From an uncultured Candidatus Saccharibacteria bacterium (GTDB taxonomy: Bacteria; Patescibacteriota; Minisyncoccia; Phycocordibacterales; DATDWN01), in assembly GCA_964608465.1 (NCBI GenBank), contig CAZSNI010000001.1, forward strand, positions 16,215 to 80,214: a stretch of 64,000 bases of DNA. Direction: 5' to 3'. A model generated the notes under the pieces. The model was not told where the DNA came from, ran no database searches, and was given only the letters and a program-made list of their open reading frames with translations. Shown one piece after another: positions 15,693 through 32,857 of this stretch. The stretch's first letter is position 1, and each line of letters starts with the position of its first letter. The position numbers were made by a program, and so were the translations under genes.

Positions 15693-17345
15693 CTAGGACT
15701 TCACAATATGGCTTAGCATATATTCCTTAGTGCCCCCCACCTTTTTACCCGGATTAAATATGTTCTGAGGGTCAAAAATATCCTTTGTTTTCTGGAATAT
15801 TTGGACCATTTCGTGACCAAACATTTGTTCTAGGTATGGAGTACGTATAATACCGTCGTTGTGCTCTGCATCTATAGAACCTCGATACTCTTTCACCAAA
15901 CTGTATATTTTGTCAGAAACTATTGGAATTACTGCCGCATTTTTAGGATCTTTCATATTCATGAGTGGAATAATATGAAAGTTTCCATTTCCAGCATGAC
16001 CAGCAATAGTGTAGACCAGTTTGTGTTCATCCAAAATCTTTCGCATCTTAGGTAGAAATTCTGGCAGATACTGTGGCTTAACGATAACGTCATCTATAAA
16101 AGGTGCAGTTCTCGCTCCCTTAACATGCTGACGCAAAAGGTTGAAGCTCTCGCGACGAATAGTCCAGTATTTACTAGATTCTTCTTCGGAGCGAGACATT
16201 CTAGTTTTCAAACCAAAATGCGCGATCTTTTTCTGCAACTCATACATCTTTTTATCTATCTCCTTTTCATCATTATCAGAAAATTCAACAAGCAAAATAA
16301 GTTTTGGTATTCCCCCAGTTAATATCATCCCCGCTTCTGGCAAGAAACCAAACATTAGTTTGAAAAAGTTGTGAACTTTCATGGTTTTAAGCATAGACGG
16401 GAAAAACTTGAAAGCTAGTTTCATCGTACTGTCATCATATGACTCAAGTGATTCTGGGTTTGTCGTAAGGATTTCGTTTACAAGTTCACTTAGGTGGTCT
16501 AGGTTTCGTAAGAAAATAACAAAAAGTTTTGATTTCTTTTTGATTGGGACTAGTTTGAATTTTATTTCTGTTATTACACAAAGCGTTCCTTGTGAACCAG
16601 TAATAAGTTTGTTTATGTCAAAAGTCTGACCATCCCACACATTCCACAAGTAGTATCCAGCTGAGTTTTTTGAAACATCAGGTTTGGCATACTTTATAGC
16701 GTGTTCATTTTCCTGTAATAAATTCCACAAATTTTTATAAATATTTCCTTCATAGTCGCCCTGAGCAATTTTTCTATCTAACTCTTCTTTGTTTAGTGGT
16801 TTTGTTACATATTCGTTTCCATCAGCAAAAATAACCTTCATTTCTTTTACATATCTTTCAGTCTTTCCATAAGCCAAAGTTTTTTCTCCCGCAGAGTTGT
16901 TACCCACCATTCCGCCCACAGTATTTAGATTTTTAGATGCGGTATATGAAGGCAATATCGCGTCGTGTTTCAGTGTCTCAACTTCAAAATCTCTATAAAA
17001 AGTACCAGGAAGAACAGTAGCTTCTTCAGAAGTGACTTCTTTTATACCGCCCATGTGTTTTGTGATGTCTAGAATAATAGACTCACTTAGAGAGCCTCCG
17101 GACATACATGTTCCAGCAGAACGTGCAGTGATAGAAAGAGCGGGGTTCTCAGATTTATTTTCACCTACAAATTTTACTAGCTTTTGTATATCCTCAGAAT
17201 CTTTTGGAAACAAAACTAGTTCTGGTTTTACCTCAAACAAACTCGCATCTCTACTGTATGTATCTAATGTTTTCACATCAGAATTAACTTCTCCATTAAA
17301 TATTTTTTTAATTTCATCAAGCAACTCTGAATGTGAATATTTCAT
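15693..17345 (-). CDS. FAD-linked oxidase (GlcD / D-lactate dehydrogenase family)
   Basis: FAD-binding PCMH domain followed by FAD-oxidase C-terminal domain. 550 aa. Confidence 0.75.
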   Translation of the reverse strand: MKYSHSELLDEIKKIFNGEVNSDVKTLDTYSRDASLFEVKPELVLFPKDSEDIQKLVKFVGENKSENPALSITARSAGTCMSGGSLSESIILDITKHMGGIKEVTSEEATVLPGTFYRDFEVETLKHDAILPSYTASKNLNTVGGMVGNNSAGEKTLAYGKTERYVKEMKVIFADGNEYVTKPLNKEELDRKIAQGDYEGNIYKNLWNLLQENEHAIKYAKPDVSKNSAGYYLWNVWDGQTFDINKLITGSQGTLCVITEIKFKLVPIKKKSKLFVIFLRNLDHLSELVNEILTTNPESLESYDDSTMKLAFKFFPSMLKTMKVHNFFKLMFGFLPEAGMILTGGIPKLILLVEFSDNDEKEIDKKMYELQKKIAHFGLKTRMSRSEEESSKYWTIRRESFNLLRQHVKGARTAPFIDDVIVKPQYLPEFLPKMRKILDEHKLVYTIAGHAGNGNFHIIPLMNMKDPKNAAVIPIVSDKIYSLVKEYRGSIDAEHNDGIIRTPYLEQMFGHEMVQIFQKTKDIFDPQNIFNPGKKVGGTKEYMLSHIVKS

Positions 17346-29505: not shown

Positions 29506-29817
29506 TTACCATGTTCGGCCACCTCTATCGTTTCCACGATCGAAGCCTCCTGTTCTAGGTGCTCTAGGTTCCATAGGTCGAGCTTCATTTACTGTAAGCT
29601 TTCGTCCATCTAGTTCCTGACCATTCCACTTTGCAATTGCTGCATCAGCATCTGCATCGTTTGCGAACTCAACGAATCCGAATCCTTTTGATCGGCCTGT
29701 CATTTTGTCCATGATAATTGTTGCAGAAGTTACTTCTCCAACTTGTGCGAACGCATCCTTAAGACCGTCGTTACTTGTTGAATATGAAATTCCTCCTACG
29801 TATAGCTTCTTTGCCAT
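29506..29817 (-). CDS. RRM-type RNA-binding protein with Gly/Arg-rich tail
   Basis: RNP-2 LYVGGI and RNP-1 KGFGFVEF. C-terminal RGG-like tail. Confidence 0.8.
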   Translation of the reverse strand: MAKKLYVGGISYSTSNDGLKDAFAQVGEVTSATIIMDKMTGRSKGFGFVEFANDADADAAIAKWNGQELDGRKLTVNEARPMEPRAPRTGGFDRGNDRGGRTW

Positions 29818-29923
29818 TATATTTTCTCTAGTCTTTATTTTAAACTGTAAGGCGACTAGCTTCTCTCCTTTTCAACTTTCTCTTCGAAAATACGAAAACA
29901 TTGAGATACTTACATTACCTACT

Positions 29924-29952
29924 ATTATACTCCTGAGAGTCCCAAAAGTCAA
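29924..29952 (-). promoter_or_regulatory. near-consensus sigma-70 promoter driving the RRM gene (about 100-nt 5' UTR)
   Basis: Minus strand reads TTGACT, 17 bp, TATAAT. Confidence 0.55.
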
Positions 29953-29981
29953 GGTGCCAAAATGTGCCTATAAATAGTGTT

Positions 29982-30085
29982 TTTCAGAGCCTCCGCAGGC
30001 CGAAAGCATGGTTCCGTCAAGGCACCCCGTTCTTGACGGATTTGGCCGAGGACTAGCTAAAAAGACCCGCTGGGGTCTTTTTAGG
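29982..30085 (+). ncRNA. candidate structured sRNA, copy 2 (paralog of 1144-1258), with intrinsic terminator
   Basis: tttcagagcctccgcaggccgaaagcatggttccgtcaagg...cttgacggatttggccgaggactag, then agacccgctggggtcttttt. A TATAAA -10 element lies 7 bp upstream. Confidence 0.35.
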
Positions 30086-30111
30086 AAGCGATGAAAAATA
30101 CTATTTAGATA

Positions 30112-30834
30112 TTACTTCACTGAGACGGTTTTCATGATAACAGGCTGTACAGGCTTATCATTCGCTCCAGTCTGCACATTTGCTATCTTATCTACAACAT
30201 CCTGTCCCTCAACGACTTTACCGAAAATAGTATAAGCGTTTGGTAGTGGGTAGTCAGCATGCATTATGAAAAACTGACTGCCGTTTGTATTTGGACCTGC
30301 GTTCGCCATAGCAACTACACCTTTTTTATACCCTGCCTTATATGAAGCTGTGTTTGGGTTTAGTTCATCTTCAAACTTGTAACCAGGACCACCTGTTCCG
30401 TTTCCACTTGGGTCTCCACCTTGAATCATAAAACCTTTTATAACTCGGTGAAATGTAAGTCCGTTATAAAAACCTTTGTCAGCTAGTGTTACAAAGTTCT
30501 TCACTGTGTTTGGTGCATCCTCGTTGTAAGTTTCAAAAACTATTTTTCCGTAATTTGTTTCTAATGTGATCATGTTTGTTTTTTTGTTTGGGCTAATTGT
30601 ATTTGTTGTATTTGTGTTTGTAGTTGTATTTCCTTCTGGTGGCAAAGTGCCATCTTCGAAAACTGGTGTGGTTGTAGAGTACTCAAGCAAAGTATCATCC
30701 AAACCTGGGTCTACTACTTTTTTATCTTCCTTAAACAAATAATATCCTCCAACTATTACTAAACCTGTTACTATAAATCCCAATAATAAATTTTTCATAA
30801 AAAGAAGTTTAACATAAAAATAAAAGGAAACCAC
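30112..30834 (-). CDS. ppiB: cyclophilin-type peptidyl-prolyl cis-trans isomerase with N-terminal TM and Thr/Asn-rich linker
   Basis: FHRVIKGFMIQGGDP...GPNTNGSQFFI. Confidence 0.85.
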   Translation of the reverse strand: MVSFYFYVKLLFMKNLLLGFIVTGLVIVGGYYLFKEDKKVVDPGLDDTLLEYSTTTPVFEDGTLPPEGNTTTNTNTTNTISPNKKTNMITLETNYGKIVFETYNEDAPNTVKNFVTLADKGFYNGLTFHRVIKGFMIQGGDPSGNGTGGPGYKFEDELNPNTASYKAGYKKGVVAMANAGPNTNGSQFFIMHADYPLPNAYTIFGKVVEGQDVVDKIANVQTGANDKPVQPVIMKTVSVK

Positions 30835-30918
30835 TTTTTATCGCATCCCCTAATATTGACTATACTGAAAAAATAATTAGACTATATTTTGGACAAATTT
30901 CAAGGAGTCGCAAGACGC

Positions 30919-31431
30919 ATGAACAGACACGAAGTAATCAGGGCGTTCACCGAACTCGATCGCGAAGCGTTCGGGGACAAGATGCTCAAGTCGCTCGGCC
31001 TCACGGAGCGGGAACTCGAACTTCTCTTGGGGGCACTCAACGCTGTCCCCGATGACAGCTTCGAAATCCCGAACTTCAACGGCCTCGCGAAGAAGCTCAA
31101 GATCAGCAACCCACTCATCCAGATGCTCAAGAAGAAGGGCTACGTCAAGAACGGCTCTGGTCGTGGGAAGTGGGAGGTGACCGAAGGCGGGCTGAAGAAG
31201 ATGGCCAAGTCGATGCAGGTGTCGATCGATGGTGGCGAGAGAATGCCGCCGCCGGAAGTCGTCGAGCTGGAAGACGAGACTCTCCTCTGGCAGAAGTACC
31301 CCATCGACGGCATGACCCTCACGCAGATCGCTGACCGACTCAACGACATCGACAAGTCGGTCGCCGATCTCCTCGCTGAAAAGCGAGCGGTGCAGGGACA
31401 GCTTCGCAAGATGGCGACTCCGATGATGTAG
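30919..31431 (+). CDS. hypothetical 170-aa protein, GC-rich, possible HTH
   Basis: AAGGAG SD. About 55% GC. K/E-rich natural-looking composition, whereas the antisense frame is R/L-rich. Confidence 0.5.
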   Translation: MNRHEVIRAFTELDREAFGDKMLKSLGLTERELELLLGALNAVPDDSFEIPNFNGLAKKLKISNPLIQMLKKKGYVKNGSGRGKWEVTEGGLKKMAKSMQVSIDGGERMPPPEVVELEDETLLWQKYPIDGMTLTQIADRLNDIDKSVADLLAEKRAVQGQLRKMATPMM

Positions 31432-31443
31432 GGAGACAACCCA

Positions 31444-31489
31444 AGAAAAATCGAAAAGGGACTGACAACGCTCGCGCGTTGCCAGTCCC
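31444..31489. terminator. near-palindromic GC hairpin terminator between convergent genes
   Basis: gggactgacaacgctcgcgcgttgccagtccc, with a T-tract on the minus strand. Confidence 0.6.
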
Positions 31490-31510
31490 TCGTTCGTCTC
31501 GAAAGACTTC

Positions 31511-32857
31511 TTACAGATCACTCTCTTTGTACTTGTAACCAGCCGCCTCCAATCTTCTCCAGACTCTAGCGACAACCCTCTTTACGTTATCCTCGCTAAA
31601 GCCAAAATGTTTCGCGGTTTGTGAAAGCCCCTTACATGCTACGTCTGAACGACCGTAGTACGTCAGGAAAACTTCCTGTTCGACGATTGATAAGGGCTGC
31701 AACTTAGCGCCCAGTGAGCGGTAAACCTCGTCGTCCTTTTTTACGGGACTAATAGGTTTCGATTCTCTTGTGACTTCCGGAGCCAGTTCCGCAACAGAAA
31801 CATGATTACTCGGTTCTGGAACGTATGAGGCGAGTTCCTTGAGTTCGTTGAGACCTCTCACGAAGTCCCGCATCTCTCCCTTTCCCATCCTCAAGTAACC
31901 AAGAACCTTGTACTCGATCTGCCTGATGCGTTCCCGGGTAAGAGCAAACCTCTGCCCAACTTCTTCAAGTATTTTGGGATCAAAGGTTCCATCATCCAGA
32001 CCATAAAGCGCAAAGAATTTCTCAGCGTGTTTTGGTACAACACGCAGGACCTTTGCTTTTATGTTCTCCAACTTGAGCATTGCAACCTCGAGCTCCATCC
32101 GAGCCTCGACAGCTACAGCATCACTGTTGTGTCCGACGTCAGCGATAAAGTCGTTTATCACGACCTCTTCGCCATCTTTAGAAGTCCACACCGGCGTTTC
32201 CAATGACGAATCCCCATTAACAAGTTTCGCCCTTCTAACCTTCGCCAGTTTCGACTTACTCCAACCTAACGACGACATTGCTTCGTCATCGTCAGGTTTT
32301 GTACCACTCCCACCTTCGATGTTTCTCTCGAACCTCACAAGCTTTACCACATCACTGTACATGTGCTGTGGCAAACGAATGTTTCTCGAGGTGTTCGCCA
32401 AGGCGCGAGATATTGCCTGTCGTATCCACCACGTGGCATAAGTCGAGAACTTGAAACCTCTTTCCGCTTCAAATTTATCAACTGCCAACATGAGGCCAAT
32501 GTTTCCCTCCTGAATCAAATCCAGGAATTCCAAACCCCAATTGCCATACTTTCTGGCAATACTTACCACAAGTCGAAGGTTATGTCTTATCAACCTCTCC
32601 TTGAGTTTGGGGTCTCTAGTTGTTTGATACTCAGTGAACAACCTCACCTCTTCTGCTTTTTTGAGCAAAGGAAGTTCACCAGCCTCAACGAGGTAACGAT
32701 GAACGATATCATGTGGTTCTTTTGAAACCACGACGTTATCGTCAACATCTTCATCCACATCGAGTAGTTCCCAGACTTTCTCAGCCGGGATCTTGTCCAA
32801 ATCCTCTTCCAAATCATCGGGAGAGGAATAGTCTACTACGGCATCTGCCTCTGACAT
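31511..32857 (-). CDS. sigma-70 family RNA polymerase sigma factor (regions 1.2-4) with an extra C-terminal region-4-like domain
   Basis: Region 2 [39 protein letters not shown]. Region 4 [14 protein letters not shown]. Additional [15 protein letters not shown]...[12 protein letters not shown]. Confidence 0.8.

Follow-up and report, generated by a model that had tools for sequence, protein, structure and literature searches.

A dispersed family of covarying, structured intergenic elements in Paceibacteria-type Patescibacteria

The window analysed here, a 64,000-nucleotide stretch of contig CAZSNI010000001.1 (assembly GCA_964608465.1, forward-strand positions 16,215 to 80,214) from an uncultured Candidatus Saccharibacteria bacterium, carries two copies of a folded intergenic element. 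Copy 2, at 29924-30085 in a first-pass annotation, had been described there as an independently transcribed small RNA (sRNA) of about 105 nt with its own -10 element and terminator; copy 1 is the region from 1131. Coordinates are window positions unless preceded by the number of a locus from another genome (L073 and so on). We find that copy 2 is not a lone sRNA gene: it is one member of a dispersed family of structured intergenic elements, with dozens of copies per genome, and is missing in close relatives. That the family shares a covarying fold under selection, with the extent and distribution described below, we hold with high confidence.

A covarying three-way junction

A 21-nt core, TTTCAGAGCMTCCGCAGGCCG, occurs exactly twice in the window, at 1144-1164 and 29982-30002, both times on the + strand, against an expectation of zero (100 shuffles). 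A repeat finder matched 1144-1182 to 29982-30020 with 90% identity (repeat D14), and the motif common to the two copies spans 1144-1230 and 29982-30085. The shared motif reported by the first-pass annotation is thus real. We aligned 51 copies of the element (alignment A2), built a covariance model (R1) from the alignment and tested a hand-drawn structure of 47 pairs, made up of helices P0, P1, P2, P3 and hairpin B. Together they form a three-way junction, with hairpins A and B enclosed by a long P0. Hairpin A consists, in order, of P1, a GCA/GA loop, P2, an AGCWYGGU bulge and P3; hairpin B carries a C-GCNG-G loop. The parts are placed as follows in the window:

29969-30109, + strand: copy 2, whole element (R1 score 112.5 bits, E = 1.4e-27, model positions 1-142 of 142)
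29971-29986, + strand: copy 2, P0 5' arm UAAAUAGUGUUUUUCA, forming 16 bp with 30092-30107, one of them G-U; contains the TATAAA at 29969-29974
29992-29994, + strand: copy 2, P1 5' strand UCC, partner GGA at 30050-30052
29995-29997, + strand: copy 2, GCA bulge facing GA at 30048-30049; invariant in the 51 sequences of A2 and nearly so in pattern-independent matches
29998-30004, + strand: copy 2, P2 5' strand GGCCGAA, partner 30041-30047; the strongest covarying helix
30005-30012, + strand: copy 2, 8-nt bulge AGCAUGGU (family consensus AGCWYGGU), unpaired in every fold
30013-30040, + strand: copy 2, P3 hairpin, stem 30013-30022 with 30031-30040, loop 30023-30030
30041-30052, + strand: copy 2, P2 3' strand (30041-30047), GA bulge (30048-30049) and P1 3' strand (30050-30052); consensus CCGAGGA
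30057-30084, + strand: copy 2, hairpin B, CUAAAAAGACCC-GCUG-GGGUCUUUUUAG, previously taken for a terminator; C-GCNG-G loop conserved
30092-30107, + strand: copy 2, P0 3' arm UGAAAAAUACUAUUUA, ending 5 nt from the PPIase stop codon (30112-30114, - strand)
1131-1280, + strand: copy 1, full element (R1 score 133.7 bits), ending 8 nt from the pheT stop codon (1288)

Over the whole window R1 gives exactly two matches, copies 1 and 2. Copy 2 folds with -46.9 kcal/mol (z = -4.3, equalled by 0 of 200 shuffles) and copy 1 with -70 kcal/mol (z = -10); P0 of copy 1 is a perfect 21-bp inverted repeat (I17; 1131-1151 with 1260-1280).

RNAalifold, run on A2, recovered 29 pairs, in P0, P1, P2 and hairpin B, of which 22 show compensatory changes. 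Within the 47-pair structure, 86.8% of the cells of A2 are paired compared with 68.7% in shuffles, and 33 of the 47 pairs have changes on both sides. Compensatory cells number 473, compared with 160 ± 12 in shuffled alignments, and none of 500 shuffles reached 473. When the registers were slid by 1-3 columns, the covariation score fell from the observed 0.488 to 0.09-0.16, with 102-141 compensatory cells. An independent set of metagenome copies fits the same structure on alignment. The proposal of a selected secondary structure, made originally from two copies, is therefore supported, and the copies from relatives, instead of breaking the proposed pairings, add abundant compensatory changes.

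The individual helices differ in how they vary. In P1, UCC/GGA is replaced by UGC/GCA or UCU/AAG (pattern-independent matches included). The upper three pairs of P2 show 23-28 double changes each in A2, and at its base GG/CC is replaced by GA/UU in copies found with the model. Between the two window copies, P2 pairs as GGCCGAA/UUUGGCC in copy 2 and as GGCCGUG/CACGACC in copy 1, as had been noted before; the difference comprises two double changes and one G-U to G-C change, and copy 1 retains one C.A mismatch. The P3 pairing likewise stands (UCCGUCAAGG/UCUUGACGGA in copy 2, UUCGUCAA/UUGACGAA in copy 1, one double change), and the P3 loops of the two copies are indeed unrelated. Across the family the outer three pairs of P3 covary, whereas its inner GUCAA/UUGAC is paired yet fixed in sequence. 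In the stem of hairpin B, eight of nine pairs covary.

Near-invariant letters are mostly unpaired: the GCA bulge opposite GA, the bulge AGCAUGGU (AGCWYGGU once the model-found copies are included) and the C-GCNG-G loop. Tandem G.A/G.A motifs are another feature of most copies, found low in the stem of hairpin B as well as in an extension of P3. P0 is 16-53 bp long; the 5' flank …CUUUUCAGAG pairs with CUCUGAAAAG…, which lies 3' of the supposed terminator, and the distal sequence is copy-specific. About 60% of the copies have an outermost box, AAAAUCUC-GUYGAR … UGAGWAA-GAGAUUUU, consisting of an 8-bp helix between A and U tracts and an asymmetric internal loop; A4-UCUC ... GAGA-U4 is present in about 35 of 61 copies. 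The box is degenerate in copy 1 and absent from copy 2, and the GUYGAR/UGAGWAA internal loop is found in neither. Variation in size is considerable. The element measures 135-230 nt, the P3 loop takes insertions of up to 73 nt in orthologues of copy 2 (the copy at L122:5962-6174 is 213 nt long), and there are two reduced variants (L182:9609-9704 and L214:5978-6087), one lacking the distal part of hairpin A and the other hairpin B.

Several further structural or coding interpretations were rejected. A pseudoknot between the AGCWYGGU bulge and the GCNG loop shows no covariation. The GCA/GA and GUYGAR/UGAGWAA loops were considered as K-turns, but their registers are unlike the canonical one and we refer to them as tandem G.A-type loops. 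A small open reading frame (ORF), or type I toxin, starting at the conserved AUG was dismissed because neither AUG nor frame is conserved: the AUG varies (AGCUUGG, AGCACGG, AGCUCGG), the predicted peptides are unrelated, and the frame is broken by a 1-nt P3 insertion in the JACQNQ01 copies and by loop lengths that are not multiples of three. No tRNA-like domain was found in the element.

Boundaries and transcription signals of copy 2

The redrawn extent changes how the signals previously assigned to copy 2 are read. The core of the element was placed correctly, but its end at 30085 was not: the true span is 29969/29971 to 30107/30109, and the 16-bp outer helix had been missed. The TATAAA taken for a -10 element belongs to the 5' arm of P0, a helix whose pairing survives in the orthologues L136 and L133, where A-U has become U-A by a compensatory change; an RNA begun 7 nt after it would therefore miss half of the conserved P0. 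Similarly, the terminator proposed at agacccgctggggtcttttt is hairpin B, which covaries and lies within the fold, and most copies have no U tract after it. In copy 2 its GC stem lies between A5 and U5 runs, so that a hairpin followed by U5 can be read on either strand, and the fold continues for a further 25 nt.

Two promoter-like sequences lie outside the fold:

29901-29928, + strand: TTGAGA-16-TATTAT, promoter-like by consensus (10/12 matches), the best candidate for driving a + strand transcript across all of copy 2; upstream of the whole copy 2 fold
29924-29952, - strand: TTGACT-17-TATAAT, promoter of the RRM gene, 11/12 matches; context, outside the element

The second of these, reading from 29952 to 29924, had been predicted before and is confirmed. 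The first is located 40 nt upstream of copy 2 and overlaps the -10 element of the second. For the family as a whole, sigma-70-like promoters were found upstream of 14 of 61 copies, compared with 14 in a mirror control and 11.8 expected from shuffles, and the 61 copies have no conserved column 5' of the AAAAUCUC outer box. An internal promoter starting from the conserved TTGACA of P3 was rejected, its downstream -10-like hexamer not being conserved. With both assigned boxes internal to the fold and no promoter enrichment, the independent sRNA of about 105 nt with its own promoter and terminator is not supported. What survives of the sRNA interpretation is the selected structure, and there may be a + strand transcript.

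The probable folded strand

The + strand has the lower minimum free energy in 48 of 61 copies (mean difference 6.7 kcal/mol), and the given structure has -41.9 kcal/mol on the + strand compared with -36.3 on the - strand. Raw G-U counts in single-sequence folds are uninformative (191 versus 194). Counted on alignment A2, G-U outnumbers A-C by 81:28 in P0 and by 10:3 in hairpin B; the corresponding counts for the independent metagenome set are 39:17 (P0), 7:2 (P2) and 23:4 (hairpin B), and the ratio is about 3:1 once two fixed C.A positions are set aside. On the - strand, the tandem G.A motifs would become U.C/U.C. These motifs and the purine-rich bulges are sensible only on the + strand, which favours it, and we think it probable that the + strand is the one that folds.

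Distribution and database status

Genome contigs were searched with the pattern CCGCAGG-N5-AGCATGGT-N25-55-CCGAGGA, which had been verified on the window. It matched 60 loci, 53 of them in low-GC metagenome-assembled genomes (MAGs) of Patescibacteria (labelled Zambryskibacteria, Paceibacterota, 'Parcubacteria' or 'Saccharibacteria'), with up to seven matches per genome. The other seven, in high-GC genomes (Desulfopila, Phycisphaerales, Haliangiales, Janibacter, Streptomyces and Oleiharenicola), were rejected as chance matches. R1 found 63 copies in the 53 patescibacterial loci, including four within 8 kb in L120, three in L075 and two each in L113, L089, L073, L095 and L122. Metagenome contigs yielded at least 120 pattern matches; among the 80 loci listed, R1 confirmed 54 copies. 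Viral contigs gave a single pattern match, which R1 rejected at 10 bits, and thus no confirmed copy. From ten extra copies in about 389 kb and the two in the 64-kb window, the density is about one copy per 30-40 kb. Assemblies break at copies in L105, L128, L073 and L075. Within the collections searched, the family is confined to Paceibacteria-type Patescibacteria.

Scanned against Rfam 15 at the gathering threshold, the whole window returned two tRNAs only. Relaxing the threshold to E values of up to 10 for copy 2, copy 1 and the canonical copy L079 gave chance matches of at most 20 bits, far below gathering; hammerhead, twister, twister-sister, pistol, hatchet, hairpin, HDV-like and glmS ribozymes gave no match at this level. 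Full-text literature searches returned no description of the element. By these two measures, Rfam 15 and the literature searched, the family is uncatalogued.

Genomic position

Positions were counted for 101 non-identical copies. Of 86 genes on the 3' side, 63 are convergent; their stop codons lie a median of 16 nt from the end of the model (the outer box), falling between -9 and 31 nt in 54 of the 63. Copies abutting a stop codon number 54 in the convergent orientation and 11 in the other. The 5' side is unbiased (39 versus 36), with broad spacing (medians 88 and 66 nt). The PPIase and pheT genes that abut the window copies have no other terminator before the element.

We found no conserved neighbour gene. 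Those that recur are housekeeping genes (mreB, a split transketolase gene tkt, rpe, rpiB, tsaD, typA and tpiA), mreB adjoining elements in several species. The RRM gene next to copy 2 was considered as a partner and rejected, being adjacent only in the window's lineage.

In about 20% of the copies, GC-rich ORFan genes (79-264 aa, GC content 0.50-0.58 compared with 0.33-0.42 in the host) lie upstream on the same strand, at most 1.3 kb away and mostly in the adjacent 500 nt (L078, L080, L086, L087, L098, L113, L114, L118 and L109). They have no Pfam matches; those in L098 and L087 seem to be homologues. The idea that the element is an attC-like 3' module of GC-rich cassettes was rejected, as the ORFs have their own promoter and terminator, and in L085 the small genes vary while the element stays. 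We treat the ORFans as co-located with the element in permissive spacers.

Other features of the surroundings were noted in passing. About 13 of 61 copies (L087, L113, L120, L122 and L131 among them) have a motif (U)CACCACUAR / CACYAR located 5-8 nt upstream of the AAAAUCUC box. It is no ORF end: a reading of the upstream CACCACUAA motif as His-His-stop was rejected, the open frames being just 1-49 codons. A GC-rich repeat, cacccggtgaccgcgttgctgcgccgccgacaccaggtgagaaaaaa, adjoins elements in CAIOTC01, upstream in L076 and L131 and downstream in L106, and may be a second repeated or structured element. L113:2392-3420 and L120:6421-7357 are syntenic, beside a class II aldolase gene; at each, two inverted elements flank a variable spacer, which holds a GC-rich ORF of 144 aa in L113 and no ORF in L120.

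Gain, loss and retention

Looking up the exact RRM protein of the window gave ten loci with PPIase-RRM synteny. The RRM protein is identical, and copy 2 is present in the spacer in five loci and absent from the other five:

L140 (identical to the window) and L136: element present
L133 (3638-3849), L135 and L139: copy present, its P3 loop enlarged by a structured insertion of 73 nt
L132, L134, L137 and L138: no element
L141: a long-hairpin insert of another kind, about 120 nt, in the same position

The insert in L141 (985-1150, - strand) folds with -60 kcal/mol (z = -8.7), and it appears that more than one family of hairpin inserts follows stop codons in these genomes. The empty loci have an ordinary hairpin and U tract behind the PPIase stop codon, with -4.8 to -11.5 kcal/mol on the strand of the mRNA. 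In the filled ones the element replaces the 5' half of this terminator-like hairpin, of which -1.0 to -3.4 kcal/mol remain. Comparison of filled and empty loci showed no direct repeat at the junctions, the change being a replacement instead. No target-site duplication was seen; the flanks are reverse-complementary extensions of the stem.

Copy 1 has an orthologue between gyrB and pheT in L085, where pheT is 72% identical. The two copies differ throughout P2, P3 and the junction, and the fold is preserved. The 3' arm of the window copy is a perfect complement at the place where L085 has an internal loop, and quasi-palindrome correction is probably what explains the perfect outer arms. Certain features are shared by all copies of a genome, such as an extra U in P3 in JACQNQ01 and GAGGCU…UCAGCCUC in CAIOTC01; they point to proliferation, gene conversion or co-evolution with one partner. 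Copies come and go on short time scales, yet certain sites keep theirs over long ones.

The gyrB-pheT spacer is a hotspot where small genes turn over. In the window it holds a DUF2103 gene (720-1046) of about 50% GC in a genome of 37% GC; the promoter of this gene, TTGACT-17-TAATAT, resembles those of the host, its ribosome-binding site is AGGAGG and its terminator (1046-1098) is GC-rich. In L085 the DUF2103 ORF is gone, its promoter and terminator remain, and another gene of 60 aa lies beside them. The identical DUF2103 protein occurs at the same spacing in five further contigs.

Two observations concern the other side of copy 2. The leader of the RRM gene (29818-29917, - strand, about 100 nt) is almost invariant in the ten related loci and the adjacent spacer varies; the leader may be autoregulatory. 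Further on, 30877-32000 is an island of 53% GC that contains an ORF of 180 aa (30889-31431, + strand) with no Pfam match and covers the 3' part of a 448-aa sigma-70 gene (31511-32857, - strand) with an extra C-terminal tail resembling region 4. At this site the sigma gene of relatives encodes 310 aa in L132 and L133 and is missing from L134 and L137.

Discussion

As to mechanism, we lean, tentatively and with somewhat less than even confidence, towards an intergenic punctuation or terminator module that yields a stable folded RNA. The 3' end of the element would be set against the stop codon of the convergent gene, where the arrangement of A tract, long helix and U tract (in copy 2, hairpin B with A5 and U5) could stop transcription arriving from either side, and the element would occupy the place of the ordinary terminator of element-free relatives. 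It is from this geometry and this replacement that we infer the terminator role. RNA of the + strand might be made from neighbouring or divergent promoters, TTGAGA-16-TATTAT at 29901-29928 being the candidate for copy 2, and would fold to a very stable Y-shaped molecule. The long perfect stem would be a natural substrate of RNase III, at which the RNA would probably be trimmed. The invariant purine-rich bulges and the tandem G.A motifs would form a selected surface, presumably for a conserved protein partner.

Several points weigh against this model. Termination, RNase III processing and the protein partner are all steps that we infer. The best-folding strand is antisense to the abutted gene, which a pure terminator model leaves unaccounted for. 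Upstream co-directional genes mostly keep their own terminators (the DUF2103 gene, for example, has that at 1046-1098), and termination in the + direction hence does not require the element. Some copies lie near a start codon, such as those upstream of mreB; there the transcript of the neighbour must traverse the element, and a strong terminator would be harmful. A terminator scan of 29700-30300 called no terminators, neither hairpin B nor P0 of copy 2 being recognized; hairpin B is passed over because its U run is paired. The C.A positions at the ends of P1 and P3 on the + strand would be U.G on the - strand. Finally, the shared lineage-specific features and the polymorphism of copy 2 fit a proliferating selfish element equally well.

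A selfish, non-autonomous mobile element of this kind could resemble a MITE (miniature inverted-repeat transposable element) or spread through RNA. The fold would then serve the element's own propagation, for example by being recognized by a reverse transcriptase or transposase or by processing itself; an effect on termination would be a by-product, and the siting at stop codons would reflect target choice together with purifying selection. We consider this unlikely overall. It accounts for presence and absence between relatives with identical neighbour genes (with the different insert of L141 at the same spot), for dozens of copies per genome and up to four in 8 kb, for lineage-specific features in all copies of JACQNQ01 and CAIOTC01, for near-identical cores with unrelated perfect outer arms of 30-35 bp, for a AAAAUCUC/GAGAUUUU terminal box that resembles terminal inverted repeats, and for the assembly breaks at copies in L105, L128, L073 and L075. 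Yet there is no target-site duplication, the flanks extending the palindrome instead, and no transposase, integrase or reverse transcriptase among the recurrent neighbours in the stretches of up to 8 kb around copies. No copy was confirmed in viral contigs, and copies within a genome are not near-identical overall. Copy 1 has been kept over the distance that corresponds to 72% pheT identity, with many structure-preserving substitutions, and elements adjoin mreB in several species.

If instead the copies were + strand genes for stable, trans-acting small RNAs, trimmed at P0 and sharing a common protein or target in the manner of multi-copy Y RNAs or sponges of the CsrB/RsmY type, the invariant unpaired letters and the fixed GUCAA/UUGAC amid covarying stems would be as expected, since they are typical of RNAs that form ribonucleoproteins (RNPs). 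The better folding of the + strand would also fit, as would co-evolution with one partner as the origin of the shared lineage-specific changes. Genes for sRNAs commonly converge on a neighbour with which they share a bidirectional terminator, the looser 5' spacer leaves space for a promoter, and copy 2 has the promoter-like site with 10/12 matches upstream. We give this possibility little credence. The family shows neither promoter enrichment nor a conserved upstream motif, the -10 box and terminator first proposed are internal to the fold, and there is no conserved neighbouring protein gene, the RRM adjacency being limited to the window's lineage. A density of up to four copies per 8 kb and the dispensability of copy 2 in close relatives also speak against it.

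The siting of the element could also be explained from the - strand, on which it would be a terminator-stabilizer hairpin, in the 3' untranslated region or between cistrons, of the abutted gene, in whose mRNA it certainly lies. The 54 copies that abut a stop codon in this way, compared with 11 otherwise, fit this explanation, as do the lack of another terminator before the element for PPIase and pheT and the replacement of the PPIase terminator of element-free relatives. Moreover, the two fixed C.A become U.G, and both P0 and, in copy 2, hairpin B can fold on either strand. It is nevertheless improbable. The - strand is the less stable one in 48 of 61 copies (-36.3 compared with -41.9 kcal/mol for the structure), and G-U to A-C ratios of about 3:1 in P0, P2 and hairpin B favour the + strand. 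Three or four tandem G.A motifs and the GAA loops would turn into U.C/U.C and UUC, and about a quarter of the copies are oriented the other way.

A palindrome that matters only as DNA appears highly improbable. It could be maintained by template-switch correction or gene conversion, or act as a single-stranded DNA site (attC, REP/RAYT or a single-strand origin). Many copies do have perfect arms of 30-45 bp without G-U, the 3' arm of window copy 1 looks 'corrected' relative to L085, and some P3 extensions contain GCGAAGC, which forms a very stable DNA mini-hairpin. Palindrome correction, however, would erase the asymmetric GCA, AGCWYGGU and GA bulges, and these are the most conserved parts and stay unpaired in all copies. 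The wobble pairs are strand-asymmetric. By GC skew, the better-folding strand in the window is on the leading-strand template and not on the lagging, exposed strand; elsewhere a tendency towards the leading-strand template is implied just by the antisense siting to neighbour genes. No arrays, attC R/L boxes, integrase or RAYT were seen nearby: GTTGAAC in the 5' arm has no RYYYAAC partner, and copies are dispersed among housekeeping genes.

That the Y-shaped core is a new functional RNA class specific to Paceibacteria, defined by the GCA/GA loop, the AGCWYGGU bulge, the GUCAA/UUGAC helix, the GCNG loop and repeated tandem G.A motifs, is doubtful. Such a class might take the form of an abundant RNP scaffold transcribed from dozens of genes per genome of about 1 Mb. 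Alternatively, it might be a self-processing, ribozyme-like RNA that drives its own spread, with the outer stem as a site of processing or circularization.

The genomes of Paceibacteria and other Patescibacteria measure about 1 Mb and contain very little non-coding DNA, and to our knowledge almost nothing is known of the RNA biology of these bacteria beyond peculiarities of rRNA and tRNA. About 150 nt every 30-40 kb is a sizeable investment in such genomes, and implies either an unrecognized RNA-protein system or a very old and successful genomic parasite. The element accounts for assembly breaks in these MAGs. The covariance model is ready for use in annotation, and the element is a defined experimental target in cultivable or enriched Patescibacteria.

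Comparison with known systems

Like bidirectional intrinsic terminators, the element has a helix between A and U tracts (AAAAUCUC...GAGAUUUU, or A5-stem-U5 in copy 2), lies next to stop codons and takes a terminator's place. Unlike them, it is 5-10 times larger, orientation-biased and not called by a consensus scan, and has 110 nt of conserved asymmetric internal structure that termination does not need. With Y RNAs and 6S RNA it shares 5' and 3' ends paired in a long stem, conserved internal loops and several paralogues. It differs from them in having no Rfam match at E up to 10, no tRNA-like domain and no central bubble, and in its dozens of copies with no Ro/Rsr or other partner gene nearby and no conserved promoter.

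RNase III processing stalks include rRNA precursor stems and the intercistronic hairpins of the R1.1 type in phage T7. The element resembles them in its long, near-perfect helix with an asymmetric loop (GUYGAR/UGAGWAA) that brackets a structured RNA or lies between cistrons, and cleavage is predicted by analogy; the asymmetric loop is, however, missing from both window copies.

ERIC/IRU of enterobacteria, BOX and RUP of pneumococcus, Correia elements of Neisseria and bcr1 of the Bacillus cereus group are dispersed intergenic palindromic repeats that can be terminators, RNase III or RNase E sites and mRNA stabilizers. In contrast to such repeats, our element has no Rfam match and is conserved across a class-level clade and not a genus; its apex is a three-way junction with invariant bulges, its outer arms are copy-specific and it has no target-site duplication. 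In other respects the element agrees with them: a length of 100-200 nt, tens of copies per genome, strictly intergenic positions often at gene ends, a long imperfect hairpin, terminal inverted repeats, strain polymorphism and compensatory substitutions. By this analogy, the behaviour of the family would be most like that of ERIC, BOX, RUP, Correia and bcr1.

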